Shown: positions 7,172-35,736 of the stretch, piece by piece
How the letters are laid out: every line of letters starts with the position of its first letter
How positions within the stretch are numbered: position 1 is the first letter of the stretch
Virus genome (UHGV): UHGV-0134280
Origin: a virus
DNA length: 39,537 bases
Strand: one strand, 5' to 3'
Notes under the pieces: generated by a model
What the model was told of the DNA's origin: nothing
What the model saw: the letters and a program-made list of their open reading frames with translations, nothing else
The model's database searches: none
Position numbers and translations under genes: made by a program

Positions 7172-7188
7172 ATTACCTTTCAGGTAAT
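7172..7188. promoter_or_regulatory. 17-bp palindrome ATTACC-TTTCA-GGTAAT (site A, perfect)
   Basis: Read directly; in the divergent region between tailspike and the KilAC gene; an extra half-site ATTACCT lies at 7122-7128. Confidence 0.6.
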
Positions 7189-7224
7189 TTGCAAAACGTG
7201 CTGGATAGCAAACAAATTATTTGC

Positions 7225-7244
7225 TACTGTATAAATATACAGTT
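7225..7244. promoter_or_regulatory. LexA (SOS) box TACTGTATAAATATACAGTT
   Basis: CTGT-N8-ACAG with AT-rich spacer matches the enterobacterial SOS box; about 20 bp upstream of the ATG at 7264. Confidence 0.6.
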
Positions 7245-7263
7245 ATTGCATGGAGAAGATAAG

Positions 7264-7521
7264 ATGCAGCAGTATCACTATCCACTGGAAGACGGATTTA
7301 CCGAAAGGATTCACACGCCGGGAGGCGTCAGGTCACTGGTGGAGGGATCGCACTTGATGAAATTACTCCGGGATCTCAATAAGGATGGATTTAATGTCGA
7401 TGGCCCACTTGCCGAACTGACTGCACTGATTAACTACGTCACCAGCTCACAGATGTCTATGCAGGATCTGCAAACACATCTCGACTATTGTGCCGAACAA
7501 TTACGAAAACAAACCAGGTAA
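7264..7521 (+). CDS. Small KilAC/ANT C-terminal-domain protein (candidate SOS-controlled antirepressor)
   Basis: 86 aa from MQQYHY with GGAGAAG RBS; paralogous to the C-terminal domain of the Bro-N protein at 8668..9360. Confidence 0.55.
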   Translation: MQQYHYPLEDGFTERIHTPGGVRSLVEGSHLMKLLRDLNKDGFNVDGPLAELTALINYVTSSQMSMQDLQTHLDYCAEQLRKQTR

Positions 7522-7527
7522 ATTTAA

Positions 7528-7552
7528 AGGCCGCAAGAGCGGCCTATCGTTT
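7528..7552. terminator. Hairpin ggccgc-aaga-gcggcc between convergent genes
   Basis: 6-bp GC stem right after the stop at 7521, overlapping the stop of the minus gene; weak T-tract. Confidence 0.4.
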
Positions 7553-8272
7553 CGCTTTGTGCTCGTCCCAGCACGTTTTGCACCATGCCATTAAGCCGTC
7601 CGCATTTTGATTATTAGGGTAAAAGCTGGTTCGTTTTCTGCGGACATTACAAATTGGGCACCACTTCATATGACGTGTATTCTTTGGGCCATCGAGACAC
7701 CTTGCACACCACTTAGTCAATCCATCCGGATTTTTTGACGATTTCCTGAATTTTTCATATGGAAGGTTTATTCTGCATCGCAAGCACTGCTTGCTACCGC
7801 TTGAAACTCTGTTAGCTGATTCTTCTTTTGGCGGCGATACAGAAGATATTCTTGCTGGCTCTGATACTGCCTGAGGTGCTTTTTTAAATGACTGAGACGA
7901 TATGTCATCACCAGGGAATCTTCCATGATATGCCGGACGCGTTGACACTCCAGGTGGAAGCTCAGCTGTAAACGGCTTTGGCTGAATCAGTTGCCTCTCT
8001 TTTGCTAACTCCTGCTGTTTATAATATGTCTGGATTACCGCACTATCATAAGCATGAGGTACGGAAATATCAGGAGCGTTACCTCCAGTTTTTTGAAACT
8101 GAGTAGATGTGTGCTCTATCACCTGTGTACGATTAATCGTTATCTCCCCATCTTCGGTCTTTATCGTTTTGTTCTGATTAACGACCGTACGATCAGAGAT
8201 CTTAGTCTTGTTCTGGTTGATAACGTAAATAATCACCGCAACCACACCAACAACTATCCAGAAAACTTCCAT
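7544..8272 (-). CDS. N-terminally membrane-anchored protein with two C-terminal zinc-ribbon repeats, function unknown
   Basis: TM helix at residues 4-20; duplicated C-x2-C...DGL..WC..C modules in a basic C-terminal domain; GAGGAAAA RBS. Confidence 0.5.
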   Translation of the reverse strand: MEVFWIVVGVVAVIIYVINQNKTKISDRTVVNQNKTIKTEDGEITINRTQVIEHTSTQFQKTGGNAPDISVPHAYDSAVIQTYYKQQELAKERQLIQPKPFTAELPPGVSTRPAYHGRFPGDDISSQSFKKAPQAVSEPARISSVSPPKEESANRVSSGSKQCLRCRINLPYEKFRKSSKNPDGLTKWCARCLDGPKNTRHMKWCPICNVRRKRTSFYPNNQNADGLMAWCKTCWDEHKAKR

Positions 8273-8291
8273 TGCTTTTCCTCACAATAAC

Positions 8292-8308
8292 ATTACCTTA
8301 AAGGTAAT
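8292..8308. promoter_or_regulatory. 17-bp palindrome ATTACC-TTAAA-GGTAAT (site B, perfect)
   Basis: Read directly; immediately upstream of the RBS of the 7544..8272 gene. Confidence 0.6.
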
Positions 8309-8384
8309 ATCTTGCTTTCAGGTGATCAAGCGTTAAACGCAATCAACCAAATACGGTTGATTTTAATGTTTTTTCGCGCTTATC

Positions 8385-8401
8385 ATTACCTTTTCGGTAA
8401 A
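8385..8401. promoter_or_regulatory. 17-bp palindrome ATTACC-TTTTC-GGTAAa (site C)
   Basis: Read directly; one mismatch in the right half; inside the structured 8273-8667 intergenic region. Confidence 0.5.
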
Positions 8402-8667
8402 TTTACATCGCACTCCTCTTGTGCCATAGTAATCGGGCACTGGCAAAATCCAGTGCCGGGATTGGTCTCCCGGATTACTACAGAGGCACATATGCCGCAT
8501 AAGCGGTTTTTTTATGTGTAAAGCGCACCTATTCTATGGTGGGCTGTGTGGGGGCACCGAAAGGTGCGCCGGGTTCCTTTGTAGCCGGTAAGACCAACTC
8601 TGCACAGTTCACCACCATCTGATTGGTCTCAGCGGTGGTGATTAACCTAACTACAAAGGTGATCGCC

Positions 8668-9360
8668 ATGAATACCAAACCTTCCATCTTTTCCTTTGAG
8701 TCATCCTGCCAGATCCGTATGTTCATGATTGACGGAGAACCTTGGTTTGTCACCAAAGATGTGTGCAATGCTTTGAATATTGATGTTACACAAGCGAGAA
8801 AACTTGATAAAAAAGGCTGGAACAAAAAGGGGCTGCATTCAATACAGACCCCTGGTGGAATACAAGAACTATCCATCGTTTCAGAATCAGGTCTCTACAT
8901 CCTTATTCTGCGTTGCAAAGAGGCAATGACAGAGGGAACGAGAGCATTCAGATTTCTTGAATGGGTTACAGGTGAGGTTCTTCCTCAGATCCGCCGCACC
9001 GGAAGCTACATTAAAAACTCGCTCCCGCAGGAAGAACGCATAAAGATGGTTGCCGACCAGGTTGCCAACGCCACGGCGTCAGCAGTGATGCAGGCAATGA
9101 AGATAGAGAACAAAACCTACAGCGCCCCACTGAAGCCCGGCTACCGCAGTCTGATTCACTCGCCGTCTGGTGTTCTCGGCCTGACGGAGAACTCACTGCT
9201 GATGAATCTGCTGAACCAGTTACAGGAAGACGGGCACGACGTATCGGGCGCGGCGGCGGAGCTGACCACCATGTTCTGCTACATCGTCGGTGTGAGCAAA
9301 TGCCTGCGTGATATCGAGACCCACGCGGAGTACATCAACGATAAAGCAGGATTTTTCTGA
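8668..9360 (+). CDS. Ant-like antirepressor (Bro-N domain plus KilAC/ANT C-terminal domain)
   Basis: N-terminal pattern IRMFMIDGEPWFVTKDVCNAL typical of Bro-N; C-terminal domain paralogous to 7264..7521; start trimmed to MNTKP. Confidence 0.7.
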   Translation: MNTKPSIFSFESSCQIRMFMIDGEPWFVTKDVCNALNIDVTQARKLDKKGWNKKGLHSIQTPGGIQELSIVSESGLYILILRCKEAMTEGTRAFRFLEWVTGEVLPQIRRTGSYIKNSLPQEERIKMVADQVANATASAVMQAMKIENKTYSAPLKPGYRSLIHSPSGVLGLTENSLLMNLLNQLQEDGHDVSGAAAELTTMFCYIVGVSKCLRDIETHAEYINDKAGFF

Positions 9361-9432
9361 CGGAACGGCGGCACAGGGATGTGCCTTTAAATAATTCTGT
9401 ACAGATTGCAGACTGGGGGTGAATAGCGTACT

Positions 9433-9449
9433 ATTACCTTAAAGGTAAA
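9433..9449. promoter_or_regulatory. 17-bp palindrome ATTACC-TTAAA-GGTAAa (site D)
   Basis: Read directly; abuts the AGGAGG RBS of the small ORF at 9461. Confidence 0.55.
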
Positions 9450-9460
9450 GGAGGCGCGAT

Positions 9461-9628
9461 ATGACAGCGTTGAAAAATCGTACTCAGCACAATGAACAAG
9501 CCAAGCAATGCTGGGATGTCATTGGAAAAGTTATGCTTGGCCGCGCAAGCAAAGAGCGCGACAAGGATATGGTTTACCAGACAGGAACATCTTTCAGCGA
9601 CTTCAAGGCGGCATTTCGCTCCAAATAG
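9461..9628 (+). CDS. Small 55-aa protein, first gene of a two-gene moron
   Basis: ATG with AAGGAGG RBS; not in the ORF track because under 60 aa; translation MTALKNRTQHNEQAKQCWDVIGK...; 20 bp before the next gene. Confidence 0.4.
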   Translation: MTALKNRTQHNEQAKQCWDVIGKVMLGRASKERDKDMVYQTGTSFSDFKAAFRSK

Positions 9629-9648
9629 AAGCACATTAGGAGTTTGTC

Positions 9649-10089
9649 TTGAAGTTTAACATTAGAATATCTAATAGTTTTCTAAATGGGGAAAGCAACA
9701 CCCCTTTCGCTGTAGACGGACCTTTCCTTACTGACGATGAAATAAAAATCATACAAAGGTTTTTAGAAGATGTTGCCAATGGAAGGGCGCTTGTTGGAAA
9801 AAACAAGCCATCGTGGGTTGATGATAACCATGATAAAATTCCCGGCTCAGACAATTATGAGCAAGAGAATTATTGGCATTATCATTGTGGGCCAACATGG
9901 TATCCAAACACATTTAAGAATTATACCATTAACTTAAATTTCAACCCCGGCGGAATGCATTCTAATGAATGCATTCATTATGCAAAAAATGATAATGAAA
10001 TTGTCGTTGTTGGATTTTCAAGAGAACACATACCTTTCCTTTCATCAGATGGAAACGACAATCCGCTTTTTTATGATGAAGAAGAATAG
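9649..10089 (+). CDS. Moron protein of unknown function in an AT-rich segment
   Basis: TTG start with AGGAG RBS 7 nt upstream; base composition visibly lower in GC than flanking virion genes; strong terminator downstream; no recognisable motifs. Confidence 0.5.
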   Translation: MKFNIRISNSFLNGESNTPFAVDGPFLTDDEIKIIQRFLEDVANGRALVGKNKPSWVDDNHDKIPGSDNYEQENYWHYHCGPTWYPNTFKNYTINLNFNPGGMHSNECIHYAKNDNEIVVVGFSREHIPFLSSDGNDNPLFYDEEE

Positions 10090-10110
10090 CCCGCGCCGCG
10101 GGCTTTTTTG
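10088..10110. terminator. Rho-independent terminator gcccgcg/cgcgggc plus T6
   Basis: GC-rich hairpin then TTTTTT right after the stop of 9649..10089; an A-run on the other side makes it potentially bidirectional. Confidence 0.6.
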
Positions 10111-10174
10111 TGTCTGCGGATTCCCGTCCGGGCGGCGGTGGCATTCGTTAAAAACAAGGCCGCGAAAGCGGCAT

Positions 10175-10186
10175 GTGACATGTCAC
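10175..10186. repeat. 12-bp perfect palindrome GTGACATGTCAC (copy 1)
   Basis: Read directly; 8 bp downstream of the small minus-strand ORF, at the end of the virion operon. Confidence 0.7.
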
Positions 10187-10193
10187 GCTCACG

Positions 10194-10334
10194 TTATGAC
10201 AAGCCTATGTACCCTGCTACACCAGATAATATCAAAATAACTGCAACAGCAAATTCGCCATCGTCAATGATACATTTACGGTTCATAACGCCAAGTGCAA
10301 CAAGCGCAAACACAACAAGAATAAAAGCAATCAT
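10194..10334 (-). CDS. 46-aa two-helix hydrophobic peptide, translationally coupled to the last internal virion gene
   Basis: ATG 9 nt after the upstream stop with AAGGATGAG RBS; translation MIAFILVVFALVALGVMNRKCIIDDGEFAVAVILILSGVAGYIGLS; not in the ORF track. Confidence 0.4.
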   Translation of the reverse strand: MIAFILVVFALVALGVMNRKCIIDDGEFAVAVILILSGVAGYIGLS

Positions 10335-10343
10335 TTCTCATCC

Positions 10344-12818
10344 TTATTGCGGAGTGACATCCTGTGGTCGCCACCAGTATGTCTGGTTAAACTCTTTCTT
10401 CGAACGTTGCTCCATTTTACGCAAATAACCTGGTGAAAAATACTCCTGCATCTGGTTAAAGATCATGTGATCGAGAGCCGCCTTCAAGTACCAGAGATTC
10501 GCACCTGGCATCAGACCTTTCCCCAGCTTAACCAGATCACCACCAGTCTGCTCACTCTTCCCTTCCACAGCATTTAACGGTATGCCCTGAGCAATCTTCA
10601 CTACGTCATCAACCAGACCAGCTACCGGGCCAAGCATCGACGCCAGCGCGCCGCTTCCGTACCTAGTGTGATCTGACAATAAAAAGTCACCGTAAAGGCC
10701 AAGACCACCACCTTTCAGTAGAGCACCAAGCCAAAATTTAGCAGCATCTTCTCCTGTCATCTCGCGAGGATTACGACCAGACGCAAGGTCGTTAAGTTGC
10801 TGCGACAAAGCGCCAAGAATGGTCGTACTGGCAATAAACGTCGCAATATATGCCGCACGCCCACCAGCAGACGGCATACCCATAGCGCGTGACCAGTGAC
10901 GCATAACCACCGAGATAGGGAACGATTTAAACAGGAAAACACTTCTCGTTAATTCACCTTTCCATGTTCCACGCTGAATACCAGAACCGGTTATCAGTTG
11001 CTCACGTGCTCCCGGTGTAATAACAGCCATATCAACTTCTTCAGTTATGGCACCGAGCAGTTTACGCATTGCCTCAAATTTCACGCGTTCAGGCTCACCA
11101 AGATGTTTAACTGCTGAATCAGGGATACGCATAATGCTTTCCGGTGTCAGCATCGTATTATTGCCGTTCCCCCAGTCCTCCTGTTGCGCCAGCTTCCATA
11201 CGCTCCAGTCTGTGTCAGTAATCCCTTTGCTTTTCAGGATGCGAAAATCAGAATCATCGAGGCTACGAAGGTCTGGTGTCCGTGACACTACTTCTCCCAA
11301 GCTTCCCATCATGGTTACGCCATAGGCGCGCTTGTGCGCATCTGACCATGCTGTAAGCCCACTGGCACGCATTACCGCCGTTGCAGCCCAACGAGACACA
11401 GACGGCCCCATATTATCCATCGCCCAGCGGTTAACGCTGCCAAGTAGAGATTCCATCGCCAGACCAGCGCGGCGCGCCCGCGCAAGTTCTGTACGGTTCG
11501 TTGGGTCCATAGCTTCAAGCTGGTTGCGGAATAACTGGTTCATTGGAAGGTTGGTCACCTTCGCAGACAGATACATGGTTCCAAGATCAGAGAACGATGA
11601 CAGCAACGCGGATCCGAGTCTGCTGGCAACCAGCCAGTTGCGGATATTGTCAGACCATCGCGCGATGTGCGGATTCGCTACAGGCTGTGTCTTTCCGGAA
11701 ATAAAGTTGTACAGATTCTCTGTGTTGTTCGCCAGCCGCTCGACTTTACCGGTTTTACTCGGGTTAGCTGTTGCCGTTTCTGCCTTCACCTGATCAAGAA
11801 GAGAGCGGAAAACATGATCGGGGTTTGGGCCATATGTTTCCACCAGTGCAATATCTTTACTGATACCTTCCAGGTGACCGACCATGATTTCCCATAGAGA
11901 GCGATCGCCATAAAGTTGCTGATATTGCAGATAGGAATCTGCATCTTTGAAATGTATCTGTCGTGATGTATTACCACGGTTAGCACGTGCGCCTGAAATT
12001 CGCATTCCGGTATCAGTAAGCTTATTCAGCCCACCAGTAGCGATCGTGTTATAAGCCTCTCCAAGAAATGCAGACAACTCGGAATCGTTCATCAGTTGTC
12101 CATCGGCTCGGATATAATATTTGCGATCCAGCTTACCTATAACATCGCTAACCCACTTATCCTTTGATACCGCCCCAACCTTTTCCATAGAATGATGTTG
12201 AGGGATTCCCCAGTTTTCGAGATAGCCAATGTCCCCACCAGCATCATTAAACCGGCGGCGCAGTAGATCTGTCACTTCTCTCCACGCCTTAGCACCTTTT
12301 CTTGCTTTAGCATTGCCAGTATTTTGCCCTCGCATTTCATATACCAGGTCACGCACGCCAGCTTCATCTTCAAACAGGCCAAAAAAGCGAGGATCAACTG
12401 CTTCAAATGCCTCTTGCAATTGACTCAATGCATAATCACGAGTGGCTTTTGTTCTGGACTCAACAGAGAGGAAATTCGATTTACCGTCTGCATTAAAAGC
12501 AATAGTACGGTTAAGAGCGCCAAGTTTCCCATCAGCCCCTTGATAGCTATTGATAAATTTATCCAATCTCTGACGTGCGGATATAGTGAGGGCCACACGA
12601 CGTTTCTTTAATGCCGCTTCTCGCTGTAATTCTTCAGATGCCAATTGTGCTGCACGATATAGCCGCTCTGATTCGGAAAGTTGTCTCCACGACATCGGGT
12701 CATCACGAGCAATGGAGCGCATATTTCGATAAATGCGGTCTTCAATGTTCTGTATTTCTCGCGCCGTTAACGTGCGCTGCGCCGCCTGCTGGACCGCTTG
12801 TATACATTCCTGTCTCAT
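10344..12818 (-). CDS. Internal virion/ejection protein (T7 gp16-like, C-terminal part)
   Basis: 824 aa; called by size and position in the gp13-gp16-like block upstream of the tailspike. Confidence 0.5.
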   Translation of the reverse strand: MRQECIQAVQQAAQRTLTAREIQNIEDRIYRNMRSIARDDPMSWRQLSESERLYRAAQLASEELQREAALKKRRVALTISARQRLDKFINSYQGADGKLGALNRTIAFNADGKSNFLSVESRTKATRDYALSQLQEAFEAVDPRFFGLFEDEAGVRDLVYEMRGQNTGNAKARKGAKAWREVTDLLRRRFNDAGGDIGYLENWGIPQHHSMEKVGAVSKDKWVSDVIGKLDRKYYIRADGQLMNDSELSAFLGEAYNTIATGGLNKLTDTGMRISGARANRGNTSRQIHFKDADSYLQYQQLYGDRSLWEIMVGHLEGISKDIALVETYGPNPDHVFRSLLDQVKAETATANPSKTGKVERLANNTENLYNFISGKTQPVANPHIARWSDNIRNWLVASRLGSALLSSFSDLGTMYLSAKVTNLPMNQLFRNQLEAMDPTNRTELARARRAGLAMESLLGSVNRWAMDNMGPSVSRWAATAVMRASGLTAWSDAHKRAYGVTMMGSLGEVVSRTPDLRSLDDSDFRILKSKGITDTDWSVWKLAQQEDWGNGNNTMLTPESIMRIPDSAVKHLGEPERVKFEAMRKLLGAITEEVDMAVITPGAREQLITGSGIQRGTWKGELTRSVFLFKSFPISVVMRHWSRAMGMPSAGGRAAYIATFIASTTILGALSQQLNDLASGRNPREMTGEDAAKFWLGALLKGGGLGLYGDFLLSDHTRYGSGALASMLGPVAGLVDDVVKIAQGIPLNAVEGKSEQTGGDLVKLGKGLMPGANLWYLKAALDHMIFNQMQEYFSPGYLRKMEQRSKKEFNQTYWWRPQDVTPQ

Positions 12819-12823
12819 TTAAT

Positions 12824-18152: not shown

Positions 18153-20623
18153 CAGAATCCCCCAACAGTAAGGCGAGGAATAACGGCAAGAACAGACAGC
18201 GGCAACGGGTCAAGCTGACGGATTTTTACACGTCCGTTTTTGCCCCAGTTACTGTCCAGTTTCACTTCTACTTTTCCGGTAGCATCATCAACAGGATCAT
18301 CGTAGAACTCGAATTCACGCTGTGGATATTCGTACCATTTACCGCCGGGCGTAGTCGCCCAGATGCCGCGACTGGCATTCACAACCAGAGTAACGGACGG
18401 GATCACCTGTTTTTTGTCCAGCAGCGTTTCCTGTCCGTTAATGTTGATATCCAGTGTTTCGAATTCAGCAGTTATTGGCAGGCCGATGTGCACTACAGCC
18501 CCCGGAGATTCCAGCGTGACGGCACCTCCGGAAACCACTTTCTGTGGCTCCACGTTCGCATCAGAGAGAATGTTTACGGTCTGGCCTTCAAGATGAGACA
18601 GGCCTCCAAATGTCCGGCGCGCCATCTGCCAGTTCGTGGTGGCCACATTCCTGAGGGATGGCGGGACGTTCCTGTTAGCACGAACCACTACAGCGGTATT
18701 GCTGGTTACAGAAATAATGTCGCAACGTAATTCTTTTGACACTTCATCGCCAGTATCAGGATCAGTTCCGACATAAGGGAACTGTAGTTGCGCGCCGACA
18801 TCACTACTGGTGAAGTACGCACCACCAGAAACACTGATTGTATATTCCGCGCGATAATCCCATTCGCCAGAACCACCAGTGATGGTCATCGTTCTGTCAG
18901 ACGTATTTCTTCCATCATAGCTAAGGCCAGAATCAACAAAGAAAGCATCTTCATCGCTGGTAAATAAACGGCTGGACAGTCGCTCGATGTATCTCACTGT
19001 TTGCCCGTTAATAGTTCGGTTAACGACGAAATACACCGCATCTTCATTGCCTTCGCTGATACTGCATGTGCTTTCATATTTTCCGGTACTGGACTGTGGT
19101 GCCCATGCAAAAACCTGTTGATCACGCAGATAGGTCATCACCAGTAATTTGCCGTCATCACGAATGCAGAAGGCGCTGGAGTAAGGGACAATCGAGAAGC
19201 ACCAGTCAACAATGCTGTGCTTCTGAAAAAGATGATTGGCAAGGATGGTCAGGTCGTTCCCCTGATAGCCGTCAACATCGAATGAATAGGCCAGATCACG
19301 GACAACACTGCCTTTCTCCTGGACGAACAGAGCAATATTCGCCACAGCAATTGGTGGGACATTGCTCGAGCCATTTGATCCCTGAGAGCTGAATGCAAAT
19401 GATGATGGGGTTAACACTTTGTTCTGGTCGCCGGTGATGACGTACTCACCTCCGGAAGTCAGTGCCACCAGCGAACCGACATCAATCAGGTGGCGGATCT
19501 CATTAACCTGACGCCCGGCATAGGTGTAGATAATTCTGTCGTCATCCTGCGTAGGATTGCTTTTGCCAAAATCCTTATAATCCCCGGTACGGCTGGCCCA
19601 GATAGTCTGAGGGAACGCAGTCGATGCGGCGAAGTAAAGACGTTGTTGATAATAAACAACAGTGCCAGGATAACCATTAACACTGTTCCAGGCATATTTA
19701 GCCCATTTATAGCTGGCATTATCCTCGCCAACGACCTGCGAAGGGATATAGGAAATCACCTCGGCAGTTGCAGTAGTTCCATTTGCAGCAGTGATACGGG
19801 CAATGCCAAAACCACTGTGCAGATATTCCCACTCAATGCCAGTATCATCATCACCGGATCCGCCCCAGCCATCCCATGATGTGCCTTCTGTATGCGAAGG
19901 GCGCAAAGTGCCTGTTTTGCCTGCTGTAACGGCGCGATAGTAGTTACTGTCTGCACGGCGAATATCGCCAATCGACGTACTCTTACTGGTTTCCCATACC
20001 GGCACTGAATCCACTGCAGGCTGTTCCAGATAGAACAATTTGCCTACCTGCTCCGCGCCAAAAATAGAGGCGCTTGCCGTTAACGTAATTGTCCCAGTGC
20101 TGGCGCTGGCATAAACCGTCACTGACTCGTCAATATTGATATCTTCAAATGGCCCGTTCTTCGTTACCACATCAACCAGTTGCCAGTTGTCATGCGCATA
20201 GCGGCGCAACTCTTTCGGCGGGTATGCCGGGTGAACCAGCGTAAGCACGTCGGCGCTTTGCGTAAATTTAATTCGGAACAGATCGGCTTCAGTATATGGC
20301 GTGGCAATTTCATAAATAACATTGCTGCTGTTCAGCACCAACGCACCATCTTTGATAACGCGCATGTACTGGTGCCCGAACTCCAGAGCATAGGTCTGAA
20401 CCGTCGAGAACTGGAACGGGATCAGGCGGCATTTCCGATTTGGGTATTTGGCGGCACCGACAAAACGCGTACCAGGTCGATTCTCAACGCCGCCATACTG
20501 CCGCACGATAAAGTTATCGCACTTGCGCAATGCCACCTGGTACTTCGCCATGTCGATACGACCGTACAACGACGGTCCAATCTCACCACCGGCAAAGCTG
20601 GGCTGGATCCAACTGATAGCCAT
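18152..20623 (-). CDS. Tail tubular protein B / nozzle (gp12-like)
   Basis: 823 aa directly after the gp11-like gene; weak N-terminal resemblance to T7 gp12. Confidence 0.5.
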   Translation of the reverse strand: MAISWIQPSFAGGEIGPSLYGRIDMAKYQVALRKCDNFIVRQYGGVENRPGTRFVGAAKYPNRKCRLIPFQFSTVQTYALEFGHQYMRVIKDGALVLNSSNVIYEIATPYTEADLFRIKFTQSADVLTLVHPAYPPKELRRYAHDNWQLVDVVTKNGPFEDINIDESVTVYASASTGTITLTASASIFGAEQVGKLFYLEQPAVDSVPVWETSKSTSIGDIRRADSNYYRAVTAGKTGTLRPSHTEGTSWDGWGGSGDDDTGIEWEYLHSGFGIARITAANGTTATAEVISYIPSQVVGEDNASYKWAKYAWNSVNGYPGTVVYYQQRLYFAASTAFPQTIWASRTGDYKDFGKSNPTQDDDRIIYTYAGRQVNEIRHLIDVGSLVALTSGGEYVITGDQNKVLTPSSFAFSSQGSNGSSNVPPIAVANIALFVQEKGSVVRDLAYSFDVDGYQGNDLTILANHLFQKHSIVDWCFSIVPYSSAFCIRDDGKLLVMTYLRDQQVFAWAPQSSTGKYESTCSISEGNEDAVYFVVNRTINGQTVRYIERLSSRLFTSDEDAFFVDSGLSYDGRNTSDRTMTITGGSGEWDYRAEYTISVSGGAYFTSSDVGAQLQFPYVGTDPDTGDEVSKELRCDIISVTSNTAVVVRANRNVPPSLRNVATTNWQMARRTFGGLSHLEGQTVNILSDANVEPQKVVSGGAVTLESPGAVVHIGLPITAEFETLDININGQETLLDKKQVIPSVTLVVNASRGIWATTPGGKWYEYPQREFEFYDDPVDDATGKVEVKLDSNWGKNGRVKIRQLDPLPLSVLAVIPRLTVGGF

Positions 20624-25805: not shown

Positions 25806-26012
25806 TTACTGACCAAGCAGCGTTTTACCGCTGGTATTAGCAGTTGATGTGTCGCCCTGAGAACCGGTAAGCAGCGTAGAACTACGACCAGCAGCAGCGC
25901 GACGGCGACGAGTTTCTTCGTCGCGGGCATCAACAACGGCGGCATCCTGCTCCTGTGGTGCTGCCTGAACTTCTGGTGTTGCAGGCACTGATGGTGAGCT
26001 ACCCATGCACAT
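25806..26012 (-). CDS. Small Ala/Pro/Arg-rich protein upstream of portal
   Basis: 68 aa, GGAG RBS 8 nt upstream; function unknown. Confidence 0.35.
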   Translation of the reverse strand: MCMGSSPSVPATPEVQAAPQEQDAAVVDARDEETRRRRAAAGRSSTLLTGSQGDTSTANTSGKTLLGQ

Positions 26013-26101
26013 ATCAATGACTCCGTACGCAATTAAATTATTACCAATTTAACCACATATGATTTATTTATCGTAGACGGTTGACATTTAACGCGTGAAT
26101 T

Positions 26102-26118
26102 ATTACCTTTCAGGTAAC
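26102..26118. promoter_or_regulatory. 17-bp palindrome ATTACC-TTTCA-GGTAAc (site E)
   Basis: Read directly; about 16 bp after a TTGACA hexamer at 26081-26086; upstream of the tRNA island. Confidence 0.5.
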
Positions 26119-26439: not shown

Positions 26440-26516
26440 GTGGCATTAGCTCAGCTGGACAGAGCAACCGCCTTCTAAGCGGTTGGTCGCAGGTTCGAAT
26501 CCTGCATGCCACGCCA
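26440..26516 (+). tRNA. tRNA-Arg (anticodon UCU)
   Basis: Cloverleaf folded by hand: 7-bp acceptor stem GTGGCAT/ATGCCAC, D-arm, anticodon loop CTTCTAA, T-loop TTCGAAT, discriminator G and encoded CCA. Confidence 0.85.
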
Positions 26517-26714
26517 GAATCACACCTAAGGACCGTGATGCCAGAAGTTCCAGGGGCTTGGCGGTGATGGTTTCCCTTGAAGGACTATCACCGCCCTTTT
26601 TACAGCAGGACGCCATTGCGATGACTTCATGCTGTAAACCCGTACAGCCACGGAAGGCAGAACCCATTGCTTCCAGTTCGCCCGGTTCGCCGGGCATTTT
26701 TTTAAGGTGAGATT

Positions 26715-27086: not shown

Positions 27087-27090
27087 CACC

Positions 27091-27102: not shown

Positions 27103-27104
27103 AA

Positions 27105-27176: not shown

Positions 27177-28652
27177 TTAAGCATAGGGATCGTAATCTGT
27201 AATGGCCTTGCCTTGCTGGTTCTGCTGACCTGGAATTCGCAGACGCTTCGACACAGGGAAAGCAAACGTCAGCAATAGCGCATCGCCTTTACCAGGAGAA
27301 CGCCCAAGCCGCTCCTTGATATCTTCCTTCGGTTCGATAACGATTTTACCGTCCACTCGAACTTTGTACTCTGCCGCCGACAGGTCGTCCGCTGTTTCCT
27401 GGTCATCAAGCATGCCGCCCAGCCTCAGCCATGTCTTGCATGAGTTGAACATCTCCCCGCGCTTATTGAGCATCTGCGGGTCAGTAGACGCGCCACCGAA
27501 CGGAACAAGTTGCCATGTACGACCCCAGCCGTCACCGATTGACTTCAGACCAGTTCCGTAACCGAAGTCGATGAACACTGCGTCAGCCTGGTACTGGTCT
27601 TCAAAGTCAGCGATACGCTTCGCCATAATCAGATCGTCAGTAGTCTTGTTGCCAGTCCACAGCACCTTACTGTGCAGCCCCTGCCGCAGGTATATCACCG
27701 CGTCATCAACGCCTGAGTATGCCGGGTCAACGCCGATTATCACCGGAGCATGTGCAACCTGCGCAGCGGTTACCACCCGTTTCATTGCCTCATCAGTAAG
27801 ACCGGTAGGGATAAACTGCAATTCAGATGCATCAGGGAATATGCCGCGCACACGGATTTTAACGAAGTCGCTGTCTTCCCCGTAGTCATCAACCCATTTC
27901 TGCAACTGCTGTTTGTTAGTGCCTTCCACCGTCCGGCTGTCAATCTGCGCAGTTTTCCAGCGGTGTTTATATTTGCGGAAACATTCGCGGAAACGCCCGG
28001 TGTTACGTGTAGGGTTTCCGAACGCCACCCAGATAATCTCAGTGTCTTCGTCCGTAAGCGCACCCTCGGCAACTTCCCACACCAGATCGGCAATGTTGGA
28101 TGCTTCGTCGAATACCACGATGATGCGTTTGCGCTCGTTGTGTAGTCCGGCGAATGCCTCAGTGTTGTGCTCAGACCAGGGGATTGCGTCAGCTCGCCAC
28201 CGCTTGTCGTGCCCAGGATCATTGCTGTACATCGCGGTAGCGGTACAGGTAAACCAGTCTTTCGTGATAGCAAGGTTCGACCACTTGATAATTTCCGGCC
28301 AGGTCTTCGTTCGTAGCTGGTTGTCGGTGTTGGCGGTCACCACGACCTTACAATCCTCGCAAGTGGACATGCCCCAGTTGATCAGCATTGAGATGAATGC
28401 GGATTTACCAATACCGTGACCAGAAGCGCGTGCCAGCATAAGCGGCTGATAACGCGTCTCTGGATTCTGCAGGTGATCACGTATCTCTCGGAACGCATCG
28501 GCCTGCCACTGACGTGGACCGGTAGCATGTGCCAGTTCAGTCCCCTCTTCCCCCCAAGGGAACGCATAGAGGGCATAGCCAAGCGGATCGTGAGTGAACC
28601 CTGCAATATCCTCGATCAACTGCTCTTCAGGAGATAACGCTGTATCTGTCAC
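27177..28652 (-). CDS. Terminase large subunit
   Basis: 491 aa; Walker A-like GHGIGKS near the N-terminus; overlapping stop/start with the small subunit gene. Confidence 0.85.
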   Translation of the reverse strand: MTDTALSPEEQLIEDIAGFTHDPLGYALYAFPWGEEGTELAHATGPRQWQADAFREIRDHLQNPETRYQPLMLARASGHGIGKSAFISMLINWGMSTCEDCKVVVTANTDNQLRTKTWPEIIKWSNLAITKDWFTCTATAMYSNDPGHDKRWRADAIPWSEHNTEAFAGLHNERKRIIVVFDEASNIADLVWEVAEGALTDEDTEIIWVAFGNPTRNTGRFRECFRKYKHRWKTAQIDSRTVEGTNKQQLQKWVDDYGEDSDFVKIRVRGIFPDASELQFIPTGLTDEAMKRVVTAAQVAHAPVIIGVDPAYSGVDDAVIYLRQGLHSKVLWTGNKTTDDLIMAKRIADFEDQYQADAVFIDFGYGTGLKSIGDGWGRTWQLVPFGGASTDPQMLNKRGEMFNSCKTWLRLGGMLDDQETADDLSAAEYKVRVDGKIVIEPKEDIKERLGRSPGKGDALLLTFAFPVSKRLRIPGQQNQQGKAITDYDPYA

Positions 28653-29245
28653 TGATTACCATCCTGACGTTCTTTGAGTCGCTTCCTGGCTGCTGCTATG
28701 CGATCAGCAATTGTCACATTCACATTAACATCCAGACGTTCTTTGAACGCGTTGACATCAACATGCTTACCAATCAGCTCAAGGTTCTTCACCTTGTCAG
28801 GCCATTTAATTTTTTTGAGGATTGTCTCTATCGAATCCTCGTTCATGTTCATGATGGTCGATGACAGATCAAAGCCACTAAGCGTAGTGCGCCAGATTTT
28901 CGGCCACTCACGGATTGGTTTAAGGCTCCCATCGTCGTTGAGGATATCGATCACGTCCATCTGGTCGATCTCCACCAGGCGCATGAGAACGTAATCAGCA
29001 CTGACGCGCATTCGTTTGTTGCGCTCCTCCATCAACTCGGCAATCCGTTTTTGAATGCGTTCATCGCGCATCATGACACTGGCTTTAACTGCCGCTGTAT
29101 TTGGGGAGAATCCTGCGTTAATCGCAGCCTGAGTCTGGTTTTCAGGCGTTTTGATGTATGACTGGCAATAAGCCTCCTGCATTGCTGTGAGCGGCTTAAA
29201 TTGCGTTGATTTGCGTTTATAGGTTTTAGGTTCAGCAGGCATCAT
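28649..29245 (-). CDS. Terminase small subunit
   Basis: HTH-like segment QAAINAGFSPNTAA; start trimmed to ATGATG with GGTGG RBS because the track extension to 29323 runs through a terminator hairpin. Confidence 0.65.
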   Translation of the reverse strand: MMPAEPKTYKRKSTQFKPLTAMQEAYCQSYIKTPENQTQAAINAGFSPNTAAVKASVMMRDERIQKRIAELMEERNKRMRVSADYVLMRLVEIDQMDVIDILNDDGSLKPIREWPKIWRTTLSGFDLSSTIMNMNEDSIETILKKIKWPDKVKNLELIGKHVDVNAFKERLDVNVNVTIADRIAAARKRLKERQDGNQ

Positions 29246-29261
29246 AACCACCCTGGTAATT

Positions 29262-29278
29262 GTTACCGTTGTGGTAAT
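29262..29278. promoter_or_regulatory. 17-bp palindrome gTTACC-GTTGT-GGTAAT (site J) with an extra GGTAAT half-site at 29255-29260
   Basis: Read directly; between the terminator at 29286-29314 and the small terminase RBS. Confidence 0.5.
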
Positions 29279-29285
29279 AGTACCA

Positions 29286-29314
29286 TGCAAAATAAAGCCG
29301 CCATAGTTGGCGGC
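29286..29314 (-). terminator. Rho-independent terminator gccgcca/tggcggc upstream of the terminase genes
   Basis: 7-bp GC stem with 4-nt loop; on the minus-strand transcript it is followed by UUUAUUUUG. Confidence 0.55.
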
Positions 29315-29355
29315 AGTATTCAAAACCCATCAAATTCATCATGCATAATCTACTC

Positions 29356-32144: not shown

Positions 32145-32205
32145 CTTTACCCTCGCTTATCCATATAACTTATTGATTACATTGATAACTAAAAAGATCG
32201 TCGAT

Positions 32206-32550
32206 TCAGAACTCTTCGATGTTCCAGCCACCACCTGCTTTCTTTGGTTTAACCGTTACCCCGATGATTCGGAACGGATACTGATCTGCGGCGACTTTGG
32301 TTTTCACCCTGGCGTCGTCGGTCCAGAAACCTTTCACTTCGTGCAGTTCCATCTCGCCGGTGGCGAGCATCACAGCAAAATCGGGCGTATAGAACGTGTT
32401 GTCAGCTAATCGCAGCTTGATACCCTCAAATCGATACCAGGCGATTTCCCCTGCACGTTTACGCAGCTCAAGGTGCTGGCAATACGCAGATTCTGTTTTG
32501 TTCATCTGGCCTGTTTTGAGTCGACCAAGAGCCTGTATCTGTTTTCTCAT
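32206..32550 (-). CDS. PD-(D/E)XK nuclease-like protein (DUF1064-type)
   Basis: Motif YTPDF...HEVKG fits D...E-x-K; N-terminal KTESAYCQHLEL pattern; has its own promoter-like TTGATT-N17-TTTAAT and RBS AGGGGGAAA. Confidence 0.5.
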   Translation of the reverse strand: MRKQIQALGRLKTGQMNKTESAYCQHLELRKRAGEIAWYRFEGIKLRLADNTFYTPDFAVMLATGEMELHEVKGFWTDDARVKTKVAADQYPFRIIGVTVKPKKAGGGWNIEEF

Positions 32551-32614
32551 AATTTCCCCCTGAGGTAATTAAAAACCACATAAGACACGAAATCAATAGA
32601 GTTTAGAATATTTT

Positions 32615-32631
32615 ATTACCTCACAGGTAAT
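32615..32631. promoter_or_regulatory. 17-bp palindrome ATTACC-TCACA-GGTAAT (site F, perfect)
   Basis: Read directly; between a weak terminator after the P-like gene and the nuclease gene promoter. Confidence 0.6.
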
Positions 32632-32667
32632 TATCGAGACGTAAAAAAATGCGCTATCGCGCTGGTA

Positions 32668-33468
32668 TTACTTGATAAATCCTGCCGCCTTTCCCCGCCT
32701 GTATTCCTCCATCAGCCACTGCGCCGGTGTTATTCCCCCAAGGGTGGCGGCGTTAGGCATGCACCCGAAACTTCGCCCTGGTGGATGGTAAACGTCTCTC
32801 CCTGTGTCCGGAGGCGTACTCATGGGTTCTGGCTTTGCCTGTATGCTGATCACCGGATCGGGTATCTGCTGTCCGGAAGCTACCTTTTTCGCCCAATCAT
32901 CGAGCAGCCTGCGCGCGTGTTTCTCAACCTCAATCTCGCTAAGCTGGCGCTGATACATTGCACGGCGGGTATCACATACGACCCAGTACATAACCGGATG
33001 TCGCCACGGGAATCTTTCGGGACCACCAGGATATAAACTTTTTTCCTTGCTGTACCGGTGAAACTCCGCCATCACATCGTCAATGGTGACGCCAAGAACC
33101 ATCTTGCTGTCTTTACACCACTTGATGAATTGCCCTGGCGACGGCCAGAACGGAGATTCACTGGCGCGGGCGTGGCGCATACCAGCAGAAACCTGTTCAC
33201 GGGTTCGGATCCCCCCTTCGGCAAACGCAGCAATCCACTGCTGTTTTGCAGCAACTTCCTGCTCTGGCGTCTTCAGGTTGGTTACTACTGCCGCCGGAAA
33301 CAGTTGTTTCAGCTGTTTGAAAAGGGCATCAACAAGCCTCTCTGCTGACATGTTCACCACATTGTCATTGTTGACGTACTGATGCTCATAACCTGACATG
33401 CGAGAAAGGGCTTCTCCGTCACGGTTTTGTATCGCGGTAAAAACGTTGTTCACAAGAAATCCTCCCAC
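32668..33468 (-). CDS. Replication protein P-like helicase loader
   Basis: Clear similarity to lambda P as recalled: QQWIAAFAEGGIRTREQVSAGMRHARASESPFWPSPGQFIKWC against EIRRQWVLAFRENGITTMEQVNAGMRVARRQNRPFLPSPGQFVAWC. Confidence 0.8.
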   Translation of the reverse strand: MGGFLVNNVFTAIQNRDGEALSRMSGYEHQYVNNDNVVNMSAERLVDALFKQLKQLFPAAVVTNLKTPEQEVAAKQQWIAAFAEGGIRTREQVSAGMRHARASESPFWPSPGQFIKWCKDSKMVLGVTIDDVMAEFHRYSKEKSLYPGGPERFPWRHPVMYWVVCDTRRAMYQRQLSEIEVEKHARRLLDDWAKKVASGQQIPDPVISIQAKPEPMSTPPDTGRDVYHPPGRSFGCMPNAATLGGITPAQWLMEEYRRGKAAGFIK

Positions 33469-34265
33469 GCTTCAGGGCTGTTCCAGTGCGGAACGTTGTT
33501 ATCAGGTAATGTTGATTGCTTCTGTCTGCTAATCTGCAGCCGCCTTGCCAGCTTCTGCTCCCACTGTGCCTGATGGTATGCCTTACCCTCAGCCATCCAG
33601 TAAATTCTGAACTCTGCAAGCTCCTGTGCCGTTGGCAGGCTGTCCAGGTAGATCCCCTGCAATGAGCTTTTCCGAAGAAAGTCATCTGATGGCTGCCATT
33701 GTTCATGCATGACAAATTTGCCTAATTGCCCTGGCCCACCAGGAGGAACAAAGTTATTCATCACGGCGTTGTTTGCGCCGGGGTCATGAGGCACAGAATC
33801 CCCGCTTTTTGTCCTGCTCTCCCTCTCTTGGTTAAATGACTGGTTATATGACTGGTTCTGGATCCCGTTTTTGGGATCATTCAACATCCCGTTTTTGGGA
33901 TCATTCAACATCCCGTTTTTGGGTATATTCCCGTTTTCGGTAACATTACCGTTTTCGGGTTCATTACCCCCTTCCCGGTTGCCTTTAATGTTCCCGTTTT
34001 TGGTTATATTAAGAGAGAAAACCCGCACTCTTTTCGTCGCACCCTTTCTCTCTCCGGTATCTGAAATAAGCCCCATTTTCATGAGCGATATAAGCCCGGC
34101 CTGCACGGTTTTTTTATTCAGGCAAGTGTCTTTAACGAGGCGTTCTATGCTGGGGTAGCAGAGGTTATATTCATCGGCTCTGTCAGCCATCGAGAGCAGT
34201 ATGAGCTTTAATGACGAGCTACCTGGATCTGTCTCCCAGGCCCAATCTGTTGCATGTCTGCTCAT
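33450..34265 (-). CDS. Replication initiator, O-like (N-terminal winged-HTH, iteron-encoded Asn/Gly-rich linker, DnaT-like C-terminal domain)
   Basis: Directly upstream of and overlapping the P-like gene; internal peptide repeats NGMLNDPKNG encoded by DNA iterons; GGAG RBS. Confidence 0.65.
   Translation of the reverse strand: MSRHATDWAWETDPGSSSLKLILLSMADRADEYNLCYPSIERLVKDTCLNKKTVQAGLISLMKMGLISDTGERKGATKRVRVFSLNITKNGNIKGNREGGNEPENGNVTENGNIPKNGMLNDPKNGMLNDPKNGIQNQSYNQSFNQERESRTKSGDSVPHDPGANNAVMNNFVPPGGPGQLGKFVMHEQWQPSDDFLRKSSLQGIYLDSLPTAQELAEFRIYWMAEGKAYHQAQWEQKLARRLQISRQKQSTLPDNNVPHWNSPEAWEDFL
33861..34017. repeat. Candidate origin iterons (ATCCCGTTTTTGGGATCATTCAAC and variants, 5-6 copies)
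   Basis: Tandem near-identical repeats of about 24 bp inside the O-like gene, each with an internal dyad ATCCC...GGGAT; arrangement mirrors ori-lambda inside gene O. Confidence 0.6.
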
Positions 34266-34280
34266 GATTAATCTCCGCTA

Positions 34281-34480
34281 TCAGCTTGAATGTTGTGGGG
34301 AGGAATTAATCATGATCTGCTTAATCTCTGCCCTGATGCGACGGTTTGATTCCATAGTGCACTCAACACAGTGTCCGTTGTAAACCCAGCGTTCACTGTC
34401 ATGTCCGTGCTTACATGGTTTTCCGGTGTAGTAGCGTTTAAGTCCGCGCTTTGCGGCATCAATACGTGTAATGATTTCCA
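34281..34480 (-). CDS. Small Cys/His-rich protein (possible zinc-binding regulator)
   Basis: 66 aa from MEIITR; motif CKHGHDSERWVYNGHCVEC; first gene after the terminator that follows the Cro-like gene. Confidence 0.4.
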
Positions 34481-34560
34481 TGGTAAGCCCTGTTATTAGT
34501 ATTGGGATTACGGTCATTTTGTGCTGACACAAAAAAAAGATCAACCAGATTTGGTTTTTT

Positions 34561-34577
34561 ATTACCTTTGAGGTACG
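34561..34577. promoter_or_regulatory. 17-bp palindrome ATTACC-TTTGA-GGTAcg (site G)
   Basis: Read directly; right half degenerate; lies just after the terminator hairpin that follows the Cro-like gene. Confidence 0.45.
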
Positions 34578-34586
34578 AATAGATAT

Positions 34587-34610
34587 GAAAAGACCGCCGG
34601 ATGGCGGTCT
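34587..34610 (-). terminator. Terminator hairpin agaccgcc/ggcggtct after the Cro-like gene (tR1-like position)
   Basis: 8-bp GC stem with 4-nt loop, followed on the minus transcript by UUUUC. Confidence 0.5.
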
Positions 34611-34631
34611 ACAGAGGGTTGTGGATGGATA

Positions 34632-34862
34632 TCATGAGTAGAAGAAGTATGCCAGTTCTGCTTTTGAGCGCAGCCATTGTCTTGTTTTACAGGCTTTAAA
34701 AAGCCCATTCATCAATACCTTACCTGGCATTTTGCGCTTACCTGTTAAGTGAGTCTGGATATAGTGACTCGTCGTTCCGGCTTCCTGTGCGAAGGCTTCA
34801 CGCTCATCCGGAGTAAGTGCAAGCCAGTGCTTTTTGAAATCGAAATGTCCGTTATCGCTCAT
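34632..34862 (-). CDS. Cro-like HTH regulator (XRE family)
   Basis: 76 aa; HTH-like segment QEAGTTSHYIQTHLTGKRKMPG; first gene of the early operon divergent from the repressor. Confidence 0.55.
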   Translation of the reverse strand: MSDNGHFDFKKHWLALTPDEREAFAQEAGTTSHYIQTHLTGKRKMPGKVLMNGLFKACKTRQWLRSKAELAYFFYS

Positions 34863-34906
34863 AGCTATTGCCTGATATTTATTTCAGATAATAAATATTC
34901 ACCCAT

Positions 34907-34961
34907 AAGGTAACAAAAATCAAGGATAGTTACCTATGAGGTGCATTTACCTGTTGGGTAA
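34907..34961. promoter_or_regulatory. Operator array in the divergent immunity region (overlapping TTACC/GGTAA sites K and L plus a half-site)
   Basis: AGGTAAC at 34907-34913, TTACC-TATGA-GGTgc at 34929-34945, TTACC-TGTTG-GGTAAT at 34945-34961; between the Cro-like start (34862) and repressor start (35017). Confidence 0.55.
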
Positions 34962-35016
34962 TATTGCTTTAAATTGAATCATCTACTGATTCATATATGA
35001 GGCGATTTTCCAGAAA

Positions 35017-35601
35017 ATGAAAAGTATCCAGGACGTCCGCAGGCAAAATCTCAACGACTTGATCGACCGTGAATTCAATGGTGTTCAGACGCGGATGGCA
35101 GAAAAACTTGGAACTCAGGCAAATCTGGTAAACCGCTGGGCTCTTGGCAAGAAGGTTATCGGCGACCAGGTTGCGCGAAAAATTGAAGCTGCCGCCAATA
35201 AACCCCGTAACTGGCTTGATATCGATCGCTCGCTTTCTCAGGAAGGTTTTCAGCCTGTCGGCCCAAGCGACATTGGTCAGCTGGCGGCTCACAACCTGGA
35301 ACGCTGGATGAGCGAAAGCCGCGACCTTTCAACACAGGGAAAACTTCACCGCGCATCCGGCGTCGCCCAGGTAACAATCAGCCGCCTGTTAAACAATGAG
35401 GTCAGCGTTTCCATTTCCACCCTGGAGAATGTTGCATCCGCATTCGGGCGTCACGGCTATGAATTACTGATTCACCCGCACGACCCTGCGACCATCAACT
35501 ATGACCGCTCGCGCTACGCATTGTTACCCGAAACCGAGAAAGCAAAGATCGAAAGTTACATTGAATTTGTCATCAACCAGAACGAAAAAAATAAACAATA
35601 A
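35017..35601 (+). CDS. Immunity repressor candidate with two XRE-type HTH domains and no S24 peptidase domain
   Basis: HTH-like segments around residues 20-55 and 105-150; no LexA-like Ser/Lys autocleavage module seen; no obvious RBS (possibly leaderless). Confidence 0.65.
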   Translation: MKSIQDVRRQNLNDLIDREFNGVQTRMAEKLGTQANLVNRWALGKKVIGDQVARKIEAAANKPRNWLDIDRSLSQEGFQPVGPSDIGQLAAHNLERWMSESRDLSTQGKLHRASGVAQVTISRLLNNEVSVSISTLENVASAFGRHGYELLIHPHDPATINYDRSRYALLPETEKAKIESYIEFVINQNEKNKQ

Positions 35602-35621
35602 AACTATAGTTTTCAGCAAGT

Positions 35622-35647
35622 AAGCCGCCTCATGGCGGCTTTTTTAT
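35622..35647 (+). terminator. Rho-independent terminator aagccgcc/ggcggctt plus T6 after the repressor gene
   Basis: 8-bp GC stem, 4-nt loop, TTTTTT tract. Confidence 0.65.
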
Positions 35648-35657
35648 TGCCATCAAG

Positions 35658-35674
35658 ATTACCTTATGGGTAAT
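35658..35674. promoter_or_regulatory. 17-bp palindrome ATTACC-TTATG-GGTAAT (site H, perfect)
   Basis: Read directly; between the repressor terminator and the TTGACA hexamer at 35693. Confidence 0.6.
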
Positions 35675-35692
35675 TTTTTTAACTCATATCTA

Positions 35693-35736
35693 TTGACATC
35701 AAACCAAATACGCATAATCATTACCTAAACGGTAAC
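35693..35736 (+). promoter_or_regulatory. Candidate early-left promoter (TTGACA ... CATAAT/TAATCA) with overlapping palindrome ATTACC-TAAAC-GGTAAc (site I, 35720-35736)
   Basis: Consensus -35 hexamer; -10-like hexamers 14-16 bp downstream; operator-like palindrome over the predicted start region. Confidence 0.4.

Follow-up and report, generated by a model that had tools for sequence, protein, structure and literature searches.

Dispersed 17-bp palindromes in a phiV10/epsilon15-like prophage of Escherichia coli are probable operators of its own lysogeny repressor

A short palindrome that recurs between the genes of a prophage raises the question of what reads it, and to what end. The window that we analysed, meaning the whole 39,537-nucleotide stretch of DNA (UHGV virus genome UHGV-0134280), carries such an element, ATTACC-N5-GGTAAT, 17 bp in length. 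Positions 1-1718 of the window correspond to the E. coli chromosome genes yfgG-yfgH-yfgI, and the remainder is a Uetakevirus (phiV10/epsilon15-like) prophage. We find that the palindromes are very probably bound as operators by the lysogeny repressor that the prophage itself encodes, Rep (35017-35601), a reading that is supported by homology and by comparison with related phages.

The perfect palindrome was present four times, at 7172, 8292, 32615 and 35658, exactly where an initial annotation, made from the sequence alone, had placed it, and occurred 0.00 times in 100 dinucleotide-preserving shuffles. The chance expectation of 0.002 copies per window offered with that annotation is arithmetically right (39537 / 4^12). 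On allowing up to two mismatches, 14 matches were seen against 1.00 ± 0.95 expected, with a shuffle maximum of 4. Gene starts were curated from published annotations and homology before coding and non-coding positions were scored, and with these starts 13 of the 14 matches fell, as had been claimed, in non-coding DNA, which makes up 7.6% of the prophage (binomial P = 3.7e-14). The 14th, at 3283 with two mismatches, falls within the gene for a membrane protein (3238-3642) and probably arose by chance. A single mismatch was present at each of 8385, 9433, 26102, 29244, 29262, 34946 and 35720, two at 34561 and 32553, three at 34898 (TTCACCCATAAGGTAAC) and four at 34929. The earlier list of near-perfect copies is thus sound for 8385, 9433, 26102, 29262, 35720 and 34561; its copy at 34945 is a real site that begins at 34946, while 34929 is too divergent to be called near-perfect, and 29244, 32553 and 34898 had been missed.

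Are these sites peculiar to this prophage? The GenBank record of phage epsilon15 (AY150271.2) contains seven 'protein_bind / repressor / lysogeny' features, and all seven read ATTACC-N5-GGTAAT. This record is said to be associated with the work of Kropinski et al. of 2007 (Virology 369:234). The sites are attributed there to the repressor, gp38 in epsilon15, which belongs to the same genus and has the same gene order as the window. Every annotated position except the third left-operator (OL) site has an orthologue in the window: the site before terS corresponds to 29244/29262, that before gp3/portal to 26102, that between gp19 (ant) and the tailspike gene to 7172, the three sites left of the repressor gene to 35658/35720, and the site ahead of the first gene past the replication genes to 32615/32553. 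The epsilon15 record leaves the right-operator (OR) sites unannotated, as it does the second member of every pair. Since the same sites are annotated in epsilon15, the palindromes of the window are a rediscovery of operators already known for the genus, and this orthology with sites annotated as repressor-binding favours, at the level of sequence, the operator reading first proposed for the window. Compared with epsilon15, the window is missing the lysis-operon site and the third of the OL sites, and has additional sites at 8292, 8385 and 9433 that are tied to accessory cassettes. Operator features are absent from the records of phiV10-type E. coli prophages, and the ZX5 paper mentions operators only generically.

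A scan with shuffled controls, as the initial annotation had suggested, revealed strong over-representation of the motif in related genomes as well as in the window. There were 18 sites in epsilon15 against 1.2 expected and 15 in phiV10 against 1.3, and SPC32H, Tyrion and BUCT711 had 12, 10 and 8 sites, respectively, with at most one mismatch, against about 0.06 expected. The motif was also present in prophages of Superficieibacter, Erwinia, Klebsiella, Citrobacter and Scandinavium, and both the motif and its placement recurred in all eleven of the other genomes that we examined, which came from seven host genera. The initial annotation had considered a regulon of this kind unusual in extent, whereas a dispersed set of this kind proved normal for every Uetakevirus examined, and in epsilon15 it had already been annotated. 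In prophage loci of other host genera the strongest OR site is conserved 69-71 bp upstream of the start of rep, and OL sites lie approximately 54-67 and 115-129 bp past the rep stop codon; the peptide patterns used to scan for these loci included the Rep helix itself, which biases the enterobacterial matches. The lysis-operon operator of epsilon15 (24703), phiV10 (24691), SPC32H (24781) and Tyrion (26407) was not found in the window, where this region differs. A further operator-like site, with two mismatches, is present approximately 50-60 bp upstream of the integrase gene in five of five phages (L001 26881, L002 26869, L003 26959, L004 28567 and L005 12619), in a region that falls outside the window; it reads ATTACC-N5-GGTATA in four of the five genomes and TATACC-N5-GGTAAT in BUCT711. 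The conservation of this site suggests that int may also be under Rep control in those five phages.

We then asked which features of the site are conserved, scoring 70 distinct non-coding sites, equivalent to 420 arm pairs. Each position of TTACC/GGTAA was conserved in at least 87% of sites, and eight of the ten in at least 94%, while positions 1 and 17 were looser and the spacer was A/T-rich. Conserved half-sites with variable spacers had been taken to indicate a dimeric DNA-binding protein, and the palindromes are indeed of the type bound by a dimeric helix-turn-helix (HTH) protein. The palindrome could in principle act instead as an RNA hairpin (or as cruciform DNA), serving processing, pausing or translation control in 5' leaders, as the initial annotation had itself considered. 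Several sites do lie between a promoter and a ribosome-binding site and would be transcribed, and 12 of the 13 non-coding 17-mers of the window can fold, at -2.2 to -4.5 kcal/mol, 32553 being the one that does not. Such folding is weak, however, and covariation of the arms is absent: among 68 arm pairs that depart from the consensus, 62 were broken, 4 were G-U and 2 were compensated, which indicates selection on the sequence of each half-site and not on pairing. Moreover, distal operators upstream of a -35 element would escape transcription, and the sites are strand-symmetric while genes lie on both strands. We rejected the RNA hairpin on the lack of conserved pairing, and give it almost no credence.

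The same conservation profile bears on the identity of the protein. The initial annotation had likened a core, ACCT-N3-AGGT, to the operators of MqsA-like XRE regulators, and a host factor of this type could bind the sites if the phage had recruited host control. MqsA too is an XRE-type HTH dimer that reads a short A/T-spaced palindrome (ACCT-N(2-4)-AGGT), the ACCT-N3-AGGT core is present in a subset of sites (7172, 8292 and 32615), and the hosts of all Uetakeviruses examined are Enterobacterales, which could share such a factor. However, the two bases that complete this core are poorly kept, with T at position 7 in 38 of the 70 sites (54%) and A at position 11 in 29 of them (41%), and the invariant part is TTACC/GGTAA. 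The resemblance to MqsA was rejected on these grounds and on the lack of a match to MqsA in a Pfam search of Rep; an MqsR partner was not noticed either, though no search aimed at this toxin was made. The OL/OR organization around rep and cro in every genome, together with a Pseudomonas phage that carries the same half-site beside a relative of Rep (see below), also makes a host factor extremely unlikely.

What, then, connects the sites with Rep? Rep (plus strand, 194 aa) is 100% identical to phiV10 p40 and ZX5 ORF21, has 42% identity with epsilon15 gp38, and is a full-length homologue of the Rep protein of SPC32H (PDB 5D50, E = 4e-42). In five aligned phage Rep proteins, with overall identity down to 42%, the helix NLVNRW of the N-terminal domain (NTD) is invariant, matching the invariant half-site. 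The only Pfam matches of Rep were HTH_3, HTH_26, LacI, YdaS_toxin and HTH_31, the second HTH being an HTH_3 match at residues 106-147; Peptidase_S24, the autocleavage domain, was not matched in this search. Papers citing the structure describe SPC32H Rep as a tetramer on palindromic sites, each DNA-binding pair being made up of members of different dimers; according to them, one Rep tetramer suffices for repression, and tetrameric Ant releases Rep. The domain order in these accounts is an N-terminal DNA-binding domain, a middle dimerisation domain and a C-terminal tetramerisation and Ant-binding domain. By analogy with this order, we read the second HTH of Rep as the dimerisation domain and not a second DNA reader. 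The description of Rep as a two-HTH repressor is hence not supported, as its SPC32H homologue binds DNA through the N-terminal domain only. Over-expression of the ZX5 repressor, identical to the Rep of the window, lowered the transcripts for holin and endolysin by more than 99.9% (ZX5 work).

A more distant protein provided a hint of an independent link between the half-site and the Rep NTD fold. The lambda-type cI protein of Pseudomonas phage PseuP_224 has an NTD 39% identical to that of Rep (E = 1e-12), and its gene is flanked by four copies of TTACC-N4-GGTAA (L017 2422-2474 and 3297-3336) against 0.04 expected, that is, the same half-site with a spacer one base shorter than in the window. 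This cI appears to have an S24-type C-terminal domain, judging from its translated sequence and its annotation as 'repressor protein cI'. Other distant NTD homologues, from Paraburkholderia, Hydrogenovibrio and Thiomicrospira (L012-L016), have different helices, and their loci showed neither ATTACC-N5-GGTAAT nor a recurrent palindrome of their own.

The prophage encodes a second candidate reader, a Cro-like HTH protein of 76 aa (34632-34862, minus strand; phrog_35). Its helix AGTTSHYIQ.HLT is invariant in five aligned Uetakevirus sequences, and at 58-84% overall identity it is more conserved than Rep. Lambdoid Cro and CI share operators, and the invariant helix means that the Cro-like protein may, on sequence grounds, be a second binder of the same sites; use of the OR sites by both proteins is likely and is compatible with Rep as the general reader. 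A stronger version, in which the Cro-like protein reads the dispersed sites and Rep acts only at OL/OR or does not bind the motif, seems very improbable to us. The annotators of epsilon15 gave the sites to the repressor, and in PseuP_224 the half-sites accompany a homologue of the Rep NTD, whereas the divergent 76-aa open reading frame (ORF) next to it has no BLAST similarity to the Uetakevirus Cro-like protein. Operators paired at 62 bp, described below, would also be more in keeping with a tetramer that has two DNA-binding pairs than with a small Cro.

The arrangement of the sites relative to promoters is consistent with repression by Rep. In six of six phage genomes a conserved module is present both at the early-left promoter, PL, and before the DUF1064/RuvC gene, with 62 bp from operator centre to operator centre. 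Its order is a distal operator, 16 nt, a -35 element (TTGACA, TTGATT or TTGAAA), 17 nt and a -10 element, the last two bases of which are the first two of the proximal operator. The OL/PL module of the window (35658-35736, plus strand) has a perfect distal operator (35658-35674) directly after the rep terminator (35622-35641), the PL promoter TTGACA-17-AATCAT at 35693-35721, and a proximal operator (35720-35736, one mismatch) that begins on the final two -10 bases; this is the site correctly noted in the initial annotation as overlying a candidate early-left promoter. The DUF1064 module (32553-32631, minus strand) has a perfect distal operator (32615-32631) and a proximal one with two mismatches (32553-32569), the right arm of which (GAGGTAAA) doubles as the Shine-Dalgarno sequence of the gene at 32206-32550 (minus strand). 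A strict promoter scan scored PL at 10/12, the PR promoter at 9/12 and the promoters at 8385 at 9/12, and called an alternative promoter, at 9/12, that spans the distal operator of the DUF1064 module.

Such a layout might also arise if the motif were carried along in duplicated promoter and ribosome-binding-site cassettes, as the sum of a -10 part (..AT|TA) and a Shine-Dalgarno-like AGGT, with no protein-binding role of its own. The proximal operator does overlap both elements, the module looks duplicated between PL and the DUF1064 promoter, and neighbouring sequences such as TATGTGGTT recur alongside the motif. However, the distal operators, the OR sites and the tandem sites at terS lie away from -10 and Shine-Dalgarno positions, the spacing to rep is fixed, and the two-fold symmetry is kept in both arms across the seven host genera while flanks and spacer diverge. 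The conserved symmetry and the organization of OL and OR around rep in every genome leave this explanation, like that of a host factor, very unlikely.

The element TATGTGGTT is present in three exact copies on the minus strand (7133-7141, 26051-26059 and 32574-32582), each 47-59 nt downstream of an operator and before the tailspike gene, the portal operon and the DUF1064 gene, and related versions occur in the same module of other Uetakeviruses. Possible roles are those of an activator site or of an element in late or middle promoters. Considered as a further regulatory motif, it did not exceed chance, with 12 occurrences at one mismatch against 8.4 expected.

The remaining sites were similarly placed at the heads of transcription units. 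The rep gene lies between the OL and OR sites, and, as the initial annotation had described for the immunity region, operators flank and separate the divergent rep and cro-like genes and recur before other units. The OR region (34898-34962) contains three sites: 34898, which overlaps the -35 of a TTGTTA-17-TATTAT promoter directed at cro and has a counterpart at epsilon15 33387; 34929, 17 bp from 34946 in a position matching the epsilon15 pair 33340/33357; and 34946 itself, 71 bp upstream of the rep ATG. The operator at 34561-34577 is just past the cro-like terminator (34610-34591) and before the replication operon, with counterparts at phiV10 33111 and Tyrion 35364. The tandem operators 29244 and 29262 (29244-29278), 18 bp apart and orthologous to epsilon15 11-27 and 29-45, sit between a terminator (29314-29297) and the terS ATG at 29243. 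They are inside a long TTG-started ORF, 28649-29323, if the start of the phiV10 annotation is used, and upstream of the ATG at 29243, which is where similarity to the TerS proteins of epsilon15 and SPC32H begins. Placement directly after a terminator and just ahead of a ribosome-binding site, also pointed out earlier, was seen at several sites.

In the late region, the operator at 26102-26118 is upstream of the gp3/portal operon (25806-26012, minus strand; orthologue epsilon15 2931-2947), and the perfect operator at 7172-7188 (ATTACCTTTCAGGTAAT) separates the tailspike gene (3949-7068, minus strand) from ant (orthologue epsilon15 19895-19911). Accessory genes have operators of their own. The perfect copy at 8292-8308, 93 bp from operator 8385, is 20 nt upstream of the start codon of ORF 7544-8272 (minus strand). 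This ORF encodes 242 aa (phrog_6762) with a C-terminal endonuclease VII / Lar-like zinc-finger region; in comparison with phiV10, it is an insertion that separates ant from the isrK cassette. Operator 8385-8401 heads that cassette, overlapping the -10 of one promoter (TTGATT-18-TATCAT) and abutting the -35 of another (TTTACA-17-CATAGT). Operator 9433-9449 is directly ahead of the AGGAGG and ATG of ORF 9461-9628 (phrog_8607), and a hand-called promoter, TTGCAG-17-TACTAT, overlaps it.

How might Rep be removed from so many sites? The small antirepressor gene ant (7264-7521, plus strand) encodes 85 aa with 87% identity to SPC32H Ant, and a perfect LexA box, CTGTATAAATATACAG, lies at 7227-7242 (plus strand), 21 nt upstream of its start codon. 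The Ant system of SPC32H is reportedly LexA-controlled, according to Kim and Ryu in 2013. The window thus has the parts of an SPC32H-type switch, namely a small Ant homologue with a LexA box and a Rep that lacks a match to an autocleavage domain, and it shares the operator motif and layout with that phage (PDB 5D50/5D4Z); it differs in its host and in a Rep identity of 42%. Operator 8385 is followed by an isrK-like small RNA (8437-8513, plus strand; Rfam, 74.7 bits) in tandem with a C4 antisense RNA (8532-8619, plus strand; 78.6 bits) and, directly after these, a Bro-N antirepressor gene (8668-9360, plus strand), which bears out the earlier remark that sites precede antirepressor-like morons. 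The C-terminal ~80 aa of the Bro-N protein are homologous to small Ant (41% identity over 74 aa; phrog_450), so the prophage encodes two proteins with a Rep-binding Ant module. This second, Bro-N-fused Ant behind isrK/C4 is not in the gene table of SPC32H, a genome that was not Rfam-scanned; the isrK/C4 cassette was found by Rfam scan in phiV10 and Tyrion and not in epsilon15. The cassette resembles Gifsy-1 isrK-orf45-anrP and P1 immI, here under a Rep operator. The SPC32H Rep-Ant switch itself was reportedly described by Kim and Ryu in 2013 in J Virol and by Kim and colleagues in 2016 in PNAS.

Together these features suggest a mechanism. Two N-terminal HTH domains of Rep would bind each TTACC/GGTAA pair, the half-sites being spaced by roughly one turn of the helix. 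Homology with its SPC32H counterpart predicts that Rep is a tetramer with two DNA-binding pairs, so that one tetramer could hold two operators. At PL and at the DUF1064 promoter, one operator would be held 16 nt upstream of the -35 and the second 62 bp (approximately six helical turns) downstream, starting on the last two -10 bases and extending into the Shine-Dalgarno sequence, and a tetramer may bridge the pair. Single or tandem operators would act at PR/rep, after the cro terminator, before terS and the portal operon, between ant and the tailspike gene, and ahead of both the isrK-C4-Bro-N::Ant cassette and two accessory ORFs. In this way Rep would shut off each transcription unit directly, presumably late units included, and not the two early promoters alone. 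Induction would follow the SPC32H route: DNA damage would remove LexA from 7227-7242, small Ant would be made and would take Rep off the DNA, and all units would open together. Among them would be the second, Rep-controlled antirepressor, giving positive feedback.

Several observations weigh against this proposal. The hand-called promoters at 9433, terS and the DUF1064 module (TTGATT-17-TTTAAT) failed the strict promoter scan, and no convincing sigma-70 promoter was seen near the late-operon sites 7172 and 26102, whose regulatory role is therefore the least certain. The Cro-like HTH is as invariant as the Rep helix in five aligned sequences and could bind the same sites. The 45-bp loop between paired operators is tight for bridging by a single tetramer. 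Finally, the binding of Rep to these sites is itself a prediction.

If Rep is the reader, a broader picture can be sketched, which has four parts. First, the whole genus, in at least seven host genera, would share one frozen immunity specificity, because a single Rep tetramer must recognize 10-18 dispersed operators and drift of the operator would be costly. Second, the unit of repression would be a promoter clamp, in which the tetramer bridges operators on either side of the promoter, 62 bp apart, and the downstream operator fuses -10, transcription start and Shine-Dalgarno sequence. Third, this clamp would have been duplicated at PL and the middle promoter, with degenerate copies at late promoters. 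Fourth, the Rep-controlled isrK-C4-Bro-N::Ant cassette would add positive feedback to the LexA-Ant trigger. We put this forward tentatively and would sooner doubt than assert it, a grading that applies to the four parts jointly. No description of the 62-bp promoter-clamp layout or of a single genus-wide immunity specificity was found in the literature searched.

Dispersed operator regulons are classical for P1 C1 and mycobacteriophage L5 gp71. As proposed for the window, P1 C1 is one repressor that controls many separate units through a 17-bp site, and the c4-icd-ant operon of P1 immI places a repressor-controlled C4 antisense RNA ahead of an antirepressor, as in the cassette at 8385. P1 operators, however, are asymmetric and C1 acts as a monomer at each site, whereas the sites of the window are palindromic and their repressor, a tetramer of XRE-type HTH proteins by homology, is unrelated in sequence to C1. 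The stoperators of L5/Bxb1 gp71 are likewise repressor sites spread over the prophage, numbering dozens, with many in leaders or intergenic regions; they are asymmetric and orientation-dependent and block elongation. We rejected stoperator-type sites, which require asymmetry and an orientation bias, given that the sites of the window are two-fold symmetric and mostly overlap or flank promoters.

With lambda CI/Cro the window shares divergent rep and cro genes, multiple operators between them and a second set past the rep terminator that would control the leftward early operon. By analogy with lambda, an oligomeric repressor might plausibly occupy such operators cooperatively over long range. 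Unlike lambda CI, Rep has no match to an S24 autocleavage domain and, by analogy with SPC32H, would be inactivated by an antirepressor; in addition, operators of the window are also present at late, packaging and accessory units, and its pairs straddle a promoter at 62 bp, unlike the tandem operators of lambda.

The epsilon15 operator annotation is directly transferable to phiV10-type E. coli prophages. Rep appears, from comparison of sequences, to hold every transcription unit of Uetakevirus prophages directly, operator and recognition helix are invariant across hosts, and the paired 62-bp layout provides a simple test of the trans-dimer tetramer binding proposed for SPC32H Rep. The value of these points is modest, and none of them overturns current understanding.

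We also examined the wider context of the prophage. The yfgG, yfgH and yfgI flank was found in 5,426 of 5,426 complete E. coli genomes. The junction between prophage and host is near 1718-1845, and the integrase end is cut off, past 39537. Over large parts the prophage is approximately 97% identical to phiv142-3, PAS61, ZX5 and phiV10, and identity to epsilon15 is approximately 80% in the recombination genes. The integration site of ZX5 is the 3' end of guaA (ZX5 paper). The tailspike-lysis gene interval (3643-3948) has been replaced in the window, and the O-antigen modification genes are missing. A transfer RNA gene, tRNA-Arg (anticodon TCT; 26440-26516, plus strand), lies between terL and the portal operon and points the opposite way to the structural genes; it overlaps a mechanically predicted ORF (26446-26697), and homologous tRNAs are annotated in SPC32H and in O157 typing phages.

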